A program made the position numbers and the translations under genes. Below, piece after piece: positions 22,204-46,550 of a DNA stretch of 64,000 nt. The DNA comes from Escherichia coli (lineage in GTDB: Bacteria; Pseudomonadota; Gammaproteobacteria; Enterobacterales; Enterobacteriaceae): NCBI RefSeq assembly GCF_044324875.1, contig NZ_CP172185.1; one strand, 5' to 3'. Positions within the stretch are counted from its first letter, which is position 1. Each line of letters opens with the position of its first letter. The notes below the pieces were generated by a model, which was not told the origin of the DNA, ran no database searches, and worked only from the letters and a program-made list of their open reading frames with translations.

Positions 22204-23469
22204 ATGGCGCTACCTGCAGAAAGCCTTATTGCGCATACGCTCAGAAAAATGAAGGCCAGCATGGCAGAGAAAGCCAGTCGTGAGGACGGGAGGATACGCA
22301 GTGGGCTGTTGTTTACCGGCAATGTTCACGATTCGTATCCCCGCAGGCTGTTGCTGGATACGCGCCTTTCTCCCCTTGATAAAACTGCGTGGATGATGAT
22401 TCGTCTGCATGCCCTGAATAATGAGGGCGCAGTATTTCCGACGTACGATGAACTGCAGTTACAACTGGCATCTCCCGGGCGCGGGAAGGCGTCCCGTGAA
22501 ACAGTGAGCCGGGTGCTGACAATGCTGCGGCTTACGGGCTGGCTGAGTCTGTGTAAGCGGGTCAGGGATGAAAAAGGGCGGGTCCGGGGGAATATTTACG
22601 CCCTGCATGATGAGCCACTGACCTGCTGTGATGCAGAAAAGTTTGACCCACGATACCTGGATATGGTTCTGGATACTGTGAGCAGGAGCCGGAACAAGAC
22701 AATCCGGCACACAGCCAGTGAAGTGCTCAGTGATATCAAAAATGAGCCCGGTATGCGGCATTACCACAGCCATATCACTCTGTTTGAATCGCGTATGGGG
22801 GCAGCACAGACACCTGGTCAGCTGGCGGCGCGTCAGCGGGTGAACCCGATGGTGAATGAAAACACAGGCAGAGAGAGTGGTTCGGATTCCGTACATACCC
22901 CTGCACCTGTCGTGCAGGTAAACGAACTCAGTGATCCATTAATCGAACTCAGTGAAAAACAGGAAATGAGCCCACTCAGTTCGGATTCCGTACTGCCTGA
23001 AAAATCAGCAACTTATTACTCGGTTCGGAAACCGAACAATTACGTACGTAATATCACACACAGTGTGATTAAAAATACGTACGTATTGCCTGAGTCGGTG
23101 AAATCGCAAATCAGCGCAGAAGACACGGACATGCTGACAAAACAACTGCAGGCGTTGCCGGAAGAACTGGCAGGTAGTGTGCTGAGCAGCCTGTTACAGA
23201 TGCTCAGCAAAAACACGCTCCAGAATCCGGTTGGCTGGATGCTGGCTGTGATGAAACTTGCGCGTGAGGGACGTTTTAATACGCCGGATATGTCCGTGCA
23301 TGAATCCCGGTCGCCAGCCCGTGCACCATATCAGCCTGTGTACAACCGTGATGAACGTGAACGTCGTCGCGGGAAAGTGGCGTCACCTGAAACGGTGAGC
23401 AACATTGTCGCAGAATTCCGGGCCAGCCTGAAACGTGCAAATGCTGCCCGTCTGGCGGCGCGTGTGTGA
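22204..23469 (+). CDS. STY4528-type pathogenicity-island replication protein (putative replication initiator)
   Basis: 421 aa, immediately upstream of the iteron array; family assignment recalled from SPI-7-type islands. Confidence 0.65.
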   Translation: MALPAESLIAHTLRKMKASMAEKASREDGRIRSGLLFTGNVHDSYPRRLLLDTRLSPLDKTAWMMIRLHALNNEGAVFPTYDELQLQLASPGRGKASRETVSRVLTMLRLTGWLSLCKRVRDEKGRVRGNIYALHDEPLTCCDAEKFDPRYLDMVLDTVSRSRNKTIRHTASEVLSDIKNEPGMRHYHSHITLFESRMGAAQTPGQLAARQRVNPMVNENTGRESGSDSVHTPAPVVQVNELSDPLIELSEKQEMSPLSSDSVLPEKSATYYSVRKPNNYVRNITHSVIKNTYVLPESVKSQISAEDTDMLTKQLQALPEELAGSVLSSLLQMLSKNTLQNPVGWMLAVMKLAREGRFNTPDMSVHESRSPARAPYQPVYNRDERERRRGKVASPETVSNIVAEFRASLKRANAARLAARV

Positions 23470-23483
23470 TGGTTAAAAGTCAA

Positions 23484-23808
23484 TCTATGGCGCTACTGGC
23501 ACCATAGTACAAAAAATAAGCGATGGTGCCACTGGCACCATAGTACAAAAAATGAGCGATGGTGCCACTGGCACCACGGTATAAAAAATGAGCGATGGTG
23601 CCACTGGCACCACGGTATAAAAAATGAGCGATGGTGACGCTGGCACCATAGTACAAAAAATAAGCGATGGTGCCACTGGCACCACGGTACAAAAAATAAG
23701 CGATGGTGCCACTGGCACCATAGTACAAAAAATGAGCGATGGTGCCACTGGCACCATAGTACAAAAAATGAGCGATGGTGCCACTGGCACCATAGTATAA
23801 AAACGAAC
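23484..23808. repeat. Iteron array: 9 tandem copies of a 36-bp unit (GCGATGGTGCCACTGGCACCATAGTACAAAAAATGA)
   Basis: Unit starts at 23520, 23556, 23592, 23628, 23664, 23700, 23736, 23772 (exact 36-bp period) plus a partial first copy; only minor variants (cacGgtaTaa, gtgaCGctgg). Confidence 0.9.
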
Positions 23809-23935
23809 GCAATTCATACGCTCAATCCCGTTAATTTTAAAAGGTTCAAATCTGTTTTCCTGTTGTTGTTAATCCGGTTCTTTCTGACGATCTCACACTC
23901 AACTGGTGTTATTTCTGGTACTGAGTGGAGGTCAT

Positions 23936-26647: not shown

Positions 26648-26924
26648 TGATTACATGCTTTTTTTTATTTGTTAAAGTGCATACGCTTTGATGCGTACCC
26701 TGCTGACCACAGTAAAGAGCGGGCAGCTCTTCGGTCCGGTGATCGGCTCTACACACCAGCTGGATCACAAGGCGCATAAACTCCGTGAAAACCGCGCCGG
26801 GAGAAATCCCCGGAGACTGATGAGATAAACTACAGGGCTGGTAACCCCGGGCACCGTTTTTACGGTGCCCTTTTTATTTTGGTATTGACTTTCTTTGTGT
26901 GAGCTTTAAATATGGCAGGGCTAA

Positions 26925-27238
26925 CTTGTCGCTCCGGCGACCACCAATGTTCCATAGTGGCCTGTGAGGAACGCCTTCGGGTGGCCCATGTCGCTTCAGC
27001 GACCACCAATGTTCCATGTGGCCTGTGAGGAACGCCTTCGGGTGGCCCACGTCGCTCCGGCGACCACCAATGCTTCATCTGACCTGTGAGGAGCGCCTTC
27101 GGGTGGTCAGTTTTACACCTCCTGAGCCTGAAAGGAGCTGTGCGTACTGAAGGGATATATTCCCGGAAGTACGGGCAAATCTGCACACCTTTGAGAGCAG
27201 ATGTCACTGCGGTTTTCCGTGATGATGAAGGCTTTTTT
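26925..27238 (+). repeat. Structured repeat element, copy 1 (3 tandem ~60-bp subunits plus ~130-bp conserved tail ending in a T-run)
   Basis: Subunits GTCGCTCCGGCGACCACCAATGTTCCAT(a)GTGGCCTGTGAGGAACGCCTTCGGGTGGCCCA(t/c); tail ...TTTTACACCTCCTGAGCCTGAAAGGAGCTG...GATGATGAAGGCTTTTTTT; near-identical copies at 60942 and 63735. Confidence 0.85.
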
Positions 27239-27357
27239 TACTGCACAGACAGCCGGAAATTCAGCTGATTCCGGCATCCCCGACGGGAACTATCACTCCC
27301 GTCAGGGCTGGTGATGTTCTCCGTCATATCTTTTTTTCACTCCATGGAGAAATCATC

Positions 27358-27822
27358 ATGTCTGCAACTAACTCTACTTCTGCAAAAACTGAATACTTCA
27401 ACCTGACCATGAAAGGTCTTGGGTATCTCAGCAATGTACGTCAGGTTAACCATCAGAACGGTTCGTTCCTCAGCTGTGTGATTAACGCACTGAGTGGACC
27501 AACGGACAATCCGTCCTATACGCGTTTTGATGTTACGGTTGCCGGTAAAGAGGCGACCACCCTGATCTCCCGCTGCCAGAAAGCAGTGGATGAGGACCGC
27601 AAGGTACTGCTTGGTTTTACGTTAAGCAACCTTGCCACCGACATTTTCACCCTGAACAAGGGGGAGCATGCCGGTGAGCAACGCGTCAGCCTGAAAGCCC
27701 GCCTGATCAAGGTGGACTGGATAAAAATAGGCCAGGAGCAGGTCTATAAGGCTGAAAAAGCGGAGTCCCAGCCACCGAGCCATGGCACCACAAAACGTGA
27801 ATACGCAGAAGACTCCTTCTGA
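27358..27822 (+). CDS. STY4534/DUF3577-like ICE protein
   Basis: 154-aa ORF between topB and ssb; family assignment recalled. Confidence 0.6.
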   Translation: MSATNSTSAKTEYFNLTMKGLGYLSNVRQVNHQNGSFLSCVINALSGPTDNPSYTRFDVTVAGKEATTLISRCQKAVDEDRKVLLGFTLSNLATDIFTLNKGEHAGEQRVSLKARLIKVDWIKIGQEQVYKAEKAESQPPSHGTTKREYAEDSF

Positions 27823-28741: not shown

Positions 28742-29734
28742 GTGAGTGAAAAAGTTAACAAAATCACTATGATTCATGACGGGGCGTTAAAGAAGACGCT
28801 TGAAGATCCCGCAGCAGTAAGGGACTTTCTTGAACAGGTCTTGACACACGATCAGATATCCCGCTGTAATCTTGATACAATAGAAGTTGAAAAGAATTCG
28901 TTCGTGACGGAAAGTTTGCGTCAGCATGCCTGTGATGTTTTGATCAGCATGAAGACAAACGACGGCAGGGACGGATACATTTATACCTTAATCGAGCACC
29001 AGAGTTCGCCGGATAAATTCATCCCGCTGCGTATGATGCGATATATCCTGGCTGTAATGGAGCAACATGTTGAAAAGCATAAGTGTGCACCTGTGGTGAT
29101 CCCCGTGCTGTTTTATCATGGTGCAGTGCGGCCATATCCGTATCCGCTGAACTGGGTGGATTGTCTGGATGACCCGGAGTACGGACGTGAGATTTATGGC
29201 GAGTCAAAGCCATTCAGTCTGGTGGATGTCAGTACGCTTGATGATGATGAAATTGAGCAGTATCGCCGGATGGCGGCGCTGATGTACACCATGAAGTCCG
29301 GAACTCAGGGTGATTTGATTGAGCTGATTGGTAAATCGATCACACTGACGGATAAGTATGGCAGCAGCGTTCACCTGAATACGGTGCTTACTTATCTGAT
29401 GGAACTTTACCAGATGGATGTTGCTGAACTTTTTGAAGCAATATCCACACACTATCCCAGCCACAAGGGGGTGATTATGACGATAGCGGAACAACTGGAA
29501 GAGAAAGGCCTTGAGAAAGGCCGTGCTGAAGGTCTTGCTGAAGGCCGTGCTGAAGGCCGTGCTGAAGGTCTTGCTGAAGGTCTTGCTGAAGGCCGTGCTG
29601 AAGAGCGTCAAAAAGCGCTTGCAGAAACCTATGCATCTGTCCGTCGCATGAGTGATATGGGGATGTCAACAGAAGTTATTAAGCAAGCTCTTCAGCTTTC
29701 TGATGAACAGATTCAGGAAGCGCTTAATAATTAA
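28742..29734 (+). CDS. Rpn/YhgA-like (PD-(D/E)XK transposase_31) recombination-promoting nuclease with internal (R/L)AEG tetrapeptide repeats
   Basis: GTG start 28742 after GGAGG; ...HQSSPDKFIPLRMMRYI... YhgA-like core; seven in-frame 12-nt repeats at about 29517-29600 encoding GRAEGLAEGRAEGRAEGLAEGLAEGRAEE. Confidence 0.65.
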   Translation: MSEKVNKITMIHDGALKKTLEDPAAVRDFLEQVLTHDQISRCNLDTIEVEKNSFVTESLRQHACDVLISMKTNDGRDGYIYTLIEHQSSPDKFIPLRMMRYILAVMEQHVEKHKCAPVVIPVLFYHGAVRPYPYPLNWVDCLDDPEYGREIYGESKPFSLVDVSTLDDDEIEQYRRMAALMYTMKSGTQGDLIELIGKSITLTDKYGSSVHLNTVLTYLMELYQMDVAELFEAISTHYPSHKGVIMTIAEQLEEKGLEKGRAEGLAEGRAEGRAEGLAEGLAEGRAEERQKALAETYASVRRMSDMGMSTEVIKQALQLSDEQIQEALNN

Positions 29735-46081: not shown

Positions 46082-46464
46082 TGTGTCTGAAATACCCGAA
46101 ACCGGAGGTGATGACAGAGGTCATGCCCGGGGGCAGCGTGTTTTTTCTGCCGCCGCAGGGAAAACCGGGTGTTGCGGATCTGGCGCAACCGCATCTGCAG
46201 CGCCTGCGGTCACAGCTTGAACGCAGGCTGGGTACGCTGCATCGTGTGGTGTGTCAGCCCCAGCGGGTGGGGCAGAGCAGCAGTGTGGCCGTGACAGCAG
46301 AAGGGGCGTGTGGCGAGGTGCATCTTCTGCTGACAGTAGGGGGGCATGAGAGCTGGCCCTCTGAAGAGGAATACCGGCATCCGCGCTGGTATATCCAGGT
46401 GGTGGATGCGGCCGATCTGTTCTACCTGCTGCTCTGGCTGTGTGATGGCGGGCAGGAAGCGTGA
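46078..46464 (+). CDS. Hypothetical ICE protein (3' end duplicated downstream of the receptor insertion)
   Basis: 128-aa ORF coupled to ATPase stop; last 63 bp repeated at 48806-48867. Confidence 0.5.
   Translation: MMCLKYPKPEVMTEVMPGGSVFFLPPQGKPGVADLAQPHLQRLRSQLERRLGTLHRVVCQPQRVGQSSSVAVTAEGACGEVHLLLTVGGHESWPSEEEYRHPRWYIQVVDAADLFYLLLWLCDGGQEA
46398..46460 (+). repeat. Left copy of a 62-bp imperfect direct repeat flanking the TonB-dependent receptor module
   Basis: GTGGTGGATGCGGCCGATCTGTTCTACCTGCTGCTCTGGCTGTGTGATGGCGGGCAGGAAGC versus the same at 48806-48867 with 3 substitutions. Confidence 0.85.
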
Positions 46465-46550
46465 AGTAAAAATACTTCCACTGGCAAACTGCTCCAGTGG
46501 AAGTGTATGTAATGTTTTGTTGTTTATTTTAATTTCTTGTAAAACACAAA

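Follow-up and report, generated by a model that had tools for sequence, protein, structure and literature searches.

What is the structured repeat that stands three times, always in the same orientation, in a 64,000-nucleotide (nt) stretch of the Escherichia coli contig NZ_CP172185.1 (the window), and what might it do for the genes that follow it? The original prediction had described it as an unexplained element that could not be assigned to a known family. That was wrong: the element belongs to a family that is already known and was catalogued in 2010, and the three elements are almost certainly copies of the STAXI RNA motif (Rfam RF01728; Weinberg et al., 2010). We suggest, with a probability of roughly 55%, that STAXI is a promoter-proximal, cis-acting 5' leader domain common to three operons of an integrative conjugative element (ICE).

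The description of three copies in one orientation is right: they lie at 26925-27238, 60942-61194 and 63735-63989, each on the plus strand. A repeat search of the window put the identity to copy 1 over 250 nt at 98% for copy 3 and 88% for copy 2, and also recovered a 61-nt sub-repeat. There are exactly seven instances of the unit core GAGGRNCGCCTTCGGGTG in the window (three, two and two per copy), all on the plus strand, where shuffles lead one to expect 0.3; the following 8 kb of the same ICE contain none. Scanning the entire window against Rfam at the curated gathering cutoffs (40.5 bits for RF01728, 51.2 bits for RF02957) gave a clear match to the known repeat family RF01728 in every copy: two in copy 1 (26927-27049, 61.6 bits; 27050-27233, 66.3 bits), one in copy 2 (60945-61117, 85.3 bits) and one in copy 3 (63740-63911, 83.3 bits), all on the plus strand and above the cutoff. 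We exclude that these matches are artifacts because independent covariation, described below, supports the fold.

The name STAXI stands for Ssbp, Topoisomerase, Antirestriction, XerDC Integrase (PMC2864571), and the motif is typical of ICEs with an MPF_G transfer system (Cury et al.). The window resembles the rest of the family in its tandem pseudoknots of at least two to three repeats, its UUCG loops and its place in the Enterobacterales, as well as in its MPF_G ICE and its ssb, topoisomerase III, anti-restriction and XerDC-like integrase neighbors; nothing essential is different. What distinguishes this lineage from STAXI elsewhere is a 14-nt UNCG hairpin before each canonical unit, with a period of 61 nt instead of 46-48 nt, an enlarged inner hairpin in the first of two degenerate terminal units (T1; the second is T2), and the homogenization of the three copies. 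The element had no match in a blastn search against phage genomes.

How does the element fold? All unit and array counts given here come from a unit-core scan of one genome per species, covering at least 120 loci, from which we extracted 103 distinct units; the genera include Photorhabdus, Xenorhabdus, Serratia, Pectobacterium, Dickeya, Erwinia, Pantoea, Edwardsiella, Citrobacter, Klebsiella and Cedecea. The retrieval pattern was fixed on the inner hairpin and left the outer helix and the 5' strand of the pseudoknot unconstrained. In our model the outer helix has 6 bp and the inner hairpin 3 bp with a UUCG loop, and a pseudoknot of 5 bp joins the segment after CCAAUG to the 3' half of a 10-nt bulge. 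Under this three-helix model 97.4% of cells in the 103 units are paired, against 82.8% after column shuffles, and sliding the partners lowers pairing to 34-49%. Changes on both sides are found in 267 cells, and 11 of the 14 pairs covary. The third covarying helix is the pseudoknot, in which G(U/C)U(C/U)C pairs with GGA(A/G)C in the 10-nt bulge; it is 98.8% paired, and four of its five pairs covary. Each repeat unit is, as predicted from this comparison of sequences, a small H-type pseudoknot. Covariation across other genomes supports the helices on the sense strand: over the 14 pairs, G·U or U·G combinations number 170 and A·C or C·A combinations 12 (74 G·U against 12 A·C, leaving aside the conserved basal G·U of the inner hairpin). 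Because G·U so far outnumbers A·C, we conclude that the fold is selected on the plus strand, which is the sense strand of the neighboring genes. Thermodynamic folding of the whole element, on both strands and as RNA and DNA, gave z scores of -1.4 to -2.0, with units cross-pairing and a method blind to pseudoknots.

Parts of the anatomy first proposed for the element survive this analysis. Of the helices first proposed, CTGACC/GGTCAG holds up, as does the inner GCC-UUCG-GGU hairpin. A further proposed helix, CCACC...GGTGG, we rejected. Its pairing, 78.1% as against 76.2% after shuffling, is no better than base composition would give; its two outer pairs are broken in 46-59 units out of 103, and it clashes with the supported helices. 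The subunit of about 60 bp does have a real period, of 61 nt, but is a composite of the 14-nt UNCG hairpin (GTCGC-TYCR-GCGAC) and a 47-nt pseudoknot unit; in other genera the pseudoknot unit repeats alone, with a period of 46-48 nt. The tail of about 130 bp is likewise present but is no separate part, consisting of two more pseudoknot units with larger inner hairpins. Copies 1, 2 and 3 hold three, two and two canonical units, respectively, plus two degenerate units each. The C(UUCG)G loop is found in all seven canonical units of the window, and the loops of the 5' hairpins are UCCG, UUCG or UUCA. The parts are as follows.

26919-27232, plus strand: STAXI copy 1, delimited by RF01728 with unit and T2 covariation
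26928-26941, 26990-27003 and 27051-27064, plus strand: 5' hairpins of copy 1
26942-26989, 27004-27050 and 27065-27110, plus strand: canonical pseudoknot units of copy 1
27115-27176 (T1) and 27177-27232 (T2), plus strand: degenerate units of copy 1
60937-61187, plus strand: STAXI copy 2, with a 5' hairpin, two canonical units, T1 and T2
63732-63983, plus strand: STAXI copy 3, with a 5' hairpin, two canonical units, T1 and T2

Across relatives the tail keeps one order: pseudoknot 5' strand, outer 5' strand, UGAAA/UGAGA bulge, pseudoknot 3' strand, longer inner hairpin, outer 3' strand. The second Rfam match in copy 1 aligns T1 and T2 to units 2 and 3 of the family model. The outer helix of T2 covaries between arrays (CCTT/AAGG in 52, TCTT/AAGA in 12, CCCT/AGGG in 2, CTCT/AGAG in 1), as does the pseudoknot of the last unit (AUCUGC/GCAGAU, AUCCGUUU/AAACGGAU, CUCCACUU/AAGUGGGG and CCCUGUUU/GAACAGGG). 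From the unit topology of the tail and this covariation we can assign GATGATGAAGGC to the last pseudoknot unit, as its 3' strand.

Is the element transcribed, and from where? Each copy in the window is preceded by a sigma-70-type promoter.

26885-26913, plus strand: promoter of copy 1, TTGACT, 16-17 nt spacer, TAAATAT
60901-60930, plus strand: promoter of copy 2, TTGACG, 18 nt spacer, TATTCT, with a TG upstream of the -10
63697-63726, plus strand: promoter of copy 3, TTGAAG, 18 nt spacer, TACAAT

The promoter of copy 1 was missed by a consensus scan because its -10 is weak; its position agrees with the pattern across arrays: in 68 out of 93 non-redundant ones, the -35 of the best -35/-10 pair lies between -58 and -62, counted from the first unit. 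The commonest -35 hexamers are TTGACA (25), TTGACG (17) and TTGACC (8), and TTGAC falls within that 20-nt -35 window in 52 of the 93 arrays, compared with 1.35% of background windows. For copy 1 the predicted start lies at about 26919-26921, immediately 5' of the conserved GCTAAC. The promoter-like sites of the window copies end 7-8 nt 5' of the conserved GCTAAC/GCTTTAAC, so that the predicted transcription start coincides with the beginning of the conserved block. Each copy would thus have its own promoter on the plus strand, with transcription starting some 8-10 nt before the first hairpin. STAXI transcripts have been seen in published work: strand-specific RNA-seq of Pectobacterium atrosepticum detected STAXI after topB and a second STAXI-annotated transcript immediately downstream (PMC4710047), and in vesicle preparations of E. 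coli STAXI was picked up by RT-qPCR (PMC12370729). With sense-strand covariation, a structured RNA and these transcripts, the option of a small RNA gene family, one of several first raised for the element, gains support.

Which genes follow? From about 12.3 kb on, the window is an ICE of the SPI-7/PFGI-1 type (MPF_G). As originally noted, copy 1 comes after topB; it lies between topB and a gene of the DUF3577/STY4534 family, followed by ssb. Copy 2 lies upstream of a second RNA motif, EFASI (RF02957), and then of a recombinase gene at 61901-62818 (PGAP annotation) whose product has the domains PF12835 and PF12834 (Integrase_1 and Phage_int_SAM_2). Copy 3 lies upstream of three small genes, the first encoding a 133-amino-acid hypothetical protein, and then of ardA, just past the window end. 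These orders are not peculiar to the window. When its proteins were compared by tblastn with the flanks of 106 arrays, an Integrase_1 gene followed STAXI in 40 arrays, mostly about 750-860 nt downstream; the order topB, STAXI, DUF3577 (STY4534 family), ssb was found in 18, with spacings of about 160-335 nt; and the order recombinase, STAXI, homologue of the 133-amino-acid gene (hyp30857) in 8, at about 300 nt. Every recognizable downstream homologue was on the STAXI strand (70/70). The same gene orders recur on a MOBH/MPF_G plasmid of Pantoea and in circular Salmonella SGI-4; a K. pneumoniae IncF plasmid has the recombinase module alone in the same order. In the distantly related ICEclc, an orf95213-inrR-ssb operon, driven by the bistable promoter PinR, governs the expression of the integrase and core genes (PMC3395598, PMC9286271); judged by position, the STAXI-led operon of DUF3577, a small gene and ssb would be its counterpart.

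The main reason for reading STAXI as part of a regulatory leader is a second module, downstream of it, that hides the Shine-Dalgarno (SD) sequence. In the leaders of the DUF3577 and 133-amino-acid-gene operons, STAXI is separated from the first gene by a conserved series: a hairpin that varies, then a GC hairpin, and last an anti-SD segment. In copy 1 these are the following.

27240-27360, plus strand: 3' part of the leader, from per-sequence folding of 28 leaders
27252-27275, plus strand: variable hairpin H1
27278-27307, plus strand: GC hairpin H2, of the form CCCCGACGGGAA...TCCCGNCNGGG (also CCCCGACGGGAA..TCCCGTCAGGG)
27310-27322, plus strand: anti-SD segment, predicted to pair with the SD and start region of the DUF3577 gene at 27346-27360

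The anti-SD segment, for example GATGTTTTCTCC, is complementary to the SD region and spacer (GGAGAAAACATC-ATG). Minimum-energy folds pair the SD region with this segment in 28 of 28 unique leaders from many genera, with a mean z score of -4.0. The anti-SD/SD pair co-varies between lineages (AAGATTTCTCC/GGAGAAATCTT, GGTTTTCTCC/GGAGAAAACC). Past the window, the copy 3 leader (locus L002, 30800-30860) has two hairpins before the 133-amino-acid gene, one resembling H2 and one that sequesters the SD, the latter with an unrelated sequence, CGGAACGTCCG/CGGAGGTTCCG. No Rfam family matches the 3' leader module, and RNAalifold recovered only five pairs in it, with variable loops that MAFFT could not align. 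As modeled by these folds, the module shows the first gene of the DUF3577 and 133-amino-acid-gene operons to be under probable RNA-level control.

We therefore read STAXI as a leader domain. Its RNA would form a short UNCG hairpin and then a tandem row of four or five H-type pseudoknots, of which the last two are degenerate and the two or three before them canonical, and the leaders would head three co-oriented operons: DUF3577/STY4534 family with ssb, EFASI with the Integrase_1 recombinase, and the small genes with ardA. Because promoter type and leader domain are held in common, the three operons would be controlled together after transcription start. In the mechanism that we prefer, the tandem pseudoknots would bind a putative factor several times over, and this binding would set the fate of the mRNA or the state of the SD-hiding hairpin further downstream. 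Cis action, factor binding and output are all what we infer for STAXI, and the specific factor-binding mechanism deserves much less credence than the leader reading itself.

Structured 5' leaders that gate a sequestered ribosome-binding site include the phage T4 gene 32 leader pseudoknot, ribosomal-protein operators and ribosome standby sites such as that of tisB. Like these, the STAXI leaders place a promoter-proximal pseudoknot domain before a hairpin-hidden start, here ahead of a single-stranded-DNA-binding-protein operon; unlike them, they have four or five tandem units instead of one, and their link to the hairpin is positional only. EFASI shares a leader with STAXI, standing a few hundred nt 3' of it and 5' of the integrase-like gene, but its fold is unrelated, and it is single-copy and accompanies only the recombinase-linked STAXI copy.

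Several observations weigh against a cis-acting leader. No covariation was found that links STAXI to the downstream SD switch. Rfam types STAXI as "Gene; sRNA" and not as a cis-regulator, and Weinberg et al. (2010) left "cis-regulatory" as a question mark and gave the motif no function (PMC2864571); nor did we find a paper in the searchable literature that gives it one. The transcription starts are predicted from sequence. The UUCG frequency and the conservation of the inner stem are inflated because the retrieval pattern was fixed on the inner hairpin. Finally, discrete short transcripts are possible in the window, because copies 1 and 3 are followed by runs of six to seven T and copy 2 by a terminator-like hairpin.

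This last point bears most directly on the reading of STAXI as a stand-alone, trans-acting small RNA, whose tandem units might titrate an RNA-binding protein as CsrB does CsrA; its position next to these genes would then reflect co-regulation and no cis action. We regard this as possible, though rather unlikely. Apart from the Rfam type, it draws on the published RNA-seq and RT-qPCR work, which reports STAXI as a small RNA (PMC4710047, PMC12370729), on tandem near-identical structured units of a kind typical of protein sponges, and on a T-run or terminator-like hairpin behind every window copy.

27233-27239, plus strand: run of seven T directly 3' of T2 in copy 1, not conserved across relatives
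63984-63989, plus strand: run of six T 3' of copy 3
61191-61219, plus strand: small hairpin CCGGATTTCGTCCGG and T-rich run after copy 2, terminator-like only

The T-run originally described as ending the element is thus found after copies 1 and 3 but not after copy 2, which has the hairpin and T-run at 61191-61219 instead; terminator-like sites such as this one are no commoner than in shuffles. At least five T in the 8 nt after T2 are found in only 25 of 88 arrays, and the T-runs after copies 1 and 3 are therefore no conserved family trait. Terminator-like sites within 85 nt of the last unit occur in 27 of the 88 arrays, and several of these are the downstream GC or SD leader hairpin, so that no conserved terminator stands behind the element in this set. 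A stand-alone RNA would also leave the strict co-orientation and the typical spacing unexplained, and the consensus promoter scan found no other plus-strand promoter between copy 1 and the DUF3577 gene. A sponge for CsrA, suggested by GGA triplets, we rejected: the triplets sit within the covarying pseudoknot helix and not in free loops.

To return to the leader domain, it might go further and form, together with the SD-hiding hairpin, one composite riboregulator: a common RNA-level switch that acts through a putative factor on ssb/DUF3577, the recombinase and ardA. We think this speculative and unlikely; the functional link between STAXI and the SD hairpin is one that we infer from position only. 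Long-range pairing of the STAXI pseudoknot strands with the SD region was considered and rejected, as the likeness of AAUGUUCC to GAUGUUCUCC does not covary in other lineages when compared by eye. If a composite riboregulator did exist, it could allow a burst of establishment proteins just after entry into a new host and would be an RNA-level counterpart to the Frpo-driven early expression of plasmids. The STAXI-headed operons serve expected needs of an ICE in replication, recombination and restriction evasion, and in E. coli and Salmonella related elements carry genes for virulence and for resistance to heavy metals and antibiotics. Functional work could start from the fixed promoter, the sense-strand fold, the tail of degenerate units, the absence of any conserved terminator, and the conserved but uncatalogued SD-hiding hairpin downstream.

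Could the structure instead act as DNA? It might form in single-stranded DNA during conjugative transfer, as an Frpo-like promoter that drives ssb, ardA and the recombinase early or as a priming signal for the complementary strand. Weinberg et al. (2010) weighed a role in single-stranded DNA and favored RNA, given the UUCG loops (PMC2864571). The neighborhood of ssb, anti-restriction and recombinase genes matches that of Frpo/ssi sites in plasmid leading regions (PMC11541004), and these sites, like STAXI, stand in several copies per element, in one orientation, upstream of ssb, anti-restriction and establishment genes (Masai and Arai, 1997; Samuel et al., 2024). In SGI-4, moreover, the relaxase gene is downstream of the ardC/methylase/recombinase region and co-oriented with it, which would make this a leading region if polarity is as in F. 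The structures differ, however. Frpo is one long imperfect hairpin that folds on the transferred, or template, strand and rebuilds a -35/-10 duplex, whereas STAXI forms small pseudoknots, on the sense strand by the count of 170 G·U to 12 A·C, and sits downstream of an ordinary linear sigma-70 promoter at a fixed distance. None of the three copies has an inverted partner that would rebuild a -35/-10 duplex. C(UUCG)G and UNCG loops stabilize RNA, not DNA (PMC2864571), although their frequency here is raised by the search pattern. With this strand asymmetry and no promoter-forming hairpin, we consider action as single-stranded DNA improbable, and the transfer-related site originally entertained is disfavored with it.

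The remaining original suggestion, that the copies are duplex-DNA recombination sites or a binding array for the adjacent Integrase_1 recombinase, so that the segment between copies 2 and 3 would be excised or inverted, fares worse and is very improbable. Copies 2 and 3 are indeed direct repeats that bracket the recombinase gene, likewise in at least 14 other species, and some E. coli ICEs that are otherwise 96-99% identical have a divergent allele between them. Yet among the E. coli records listed, from about 50 that cover at least 75% of the segment, none has lost or inverted it. In other genera the flanking copies differ in sequence and unit number and keep their pairing through compensatory changes, which therefore point to a single-stranded fold and not to a protein-binding site in duplex DNA. 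Copy 1 has no adjoining recombinase, and ordinary homologous recombination in the flanking homology explains the allele replacement. In strains GF43 and APEC E19035 (loci L123 and L124), 61195-63735 is replaced by a divergent Integrase_1 allele and a gene for 97 amino acids. A deletion between copies 2 and 3 in GF43 was considered and rejected in favor of allele replacement; the exchange looks like a mosaic one bounded by the repeats, not an excision.

That STAXI is a type III antitoxin-like RNA, neutralizing a downstream toxin protein, is scarcely credible: the layout of promoter, tandem pseudoknot repeats, T-run and small gene is superficially similar to the promoter, tandem pseudoknot repeats and terminator of such systems, but the downstream genes differ by copy (DUF3577, Integrase_1, the 133-amino-acid hypothetical protein) and none matches a PADLOC defense or toxin family, the units are non-identical and grade into degenerate terminal ones, and the terminator is not conserved.

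The window is 100% identical to the E. coli TUM1886 chromosome (NZ_CP128970.1). Its ICE genes encode ParA, an SPI-7-type DnaB, ParB, replication proteins of the STY4528 and STY4534 families, topoisomerase III, Ssb, PilL and TIGR037xx conjugation proteins, nearly all on the plus strand. Past the window (locus L002, record 945688-972180) the same ICE has no annotated relaxase between a traG-like gene and a frameshifted integrase and carries insertion-sequence fragments and pseudogenes; at the traG-to-integrase position the related SGI-4 has a UvrD-like helicase, TraI and an integrase. The ICE may be transfer-defective.

Upstream of copy 1, a strong intrinsic terminator stands behind topB at 26849-26870 (GGGCACCGT-TTTT-ACGGTGCCC and a T-run). 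An isrK-like match on the opposite strand, in the 26776-26870 region, reaches 27.4 bits against a 50-bit cutoff and probably reflects hairpins only. Between copy 2 and the Integrase_1 gene lies the EFASI motif, also found at the same position in locus L084.

61642-61764, plus strand: EFASI RNA motif (RF02957), 71.7 bits against the 51.2-bit cutoff

The 160-nt unannotated segment after copy 2, 61218-61377, is about 86-87% identical in 611 E. coli records, O157:H7 EDL933 included. In EDL933 its homologue follows a STAXI array with a 46-nt period, in an island remnant adjacent to type B L31 and hok/gef (locus L126, 2740-3160).

Two direct-repeat pairs, at 46-49 kb and 55-59 kb, may be traces that cargo insertion left behind. 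The first (46389-46465 and 48796-48872; 77 nt, 91% identity) flanks an iha adhesin/siderophore-receptor gene; the second (55461-55580 and 58856-58975; 120 nt, 88%) flanks an HNH endonuclease, an EcoRI-like methyltransferase and ccdAB. Tandem repeats include eight 36-nt units within a hypothetical gene on the minus strand (23439-23839) and, near the start of the methyltransferase gene, the 7-nt GCTTGTT about 20 times (58011-58171). A further tandem repeat, of nine 12-nt units, lies within an Rpn-family gene (29493-29636), and its length seems variable among E. coli ICEs. We make no claim of unit-number polymorphism for STAXI among these ICEs, as length differences of 48 and 60 nt are multiples of this nearby 12-nt repeat.

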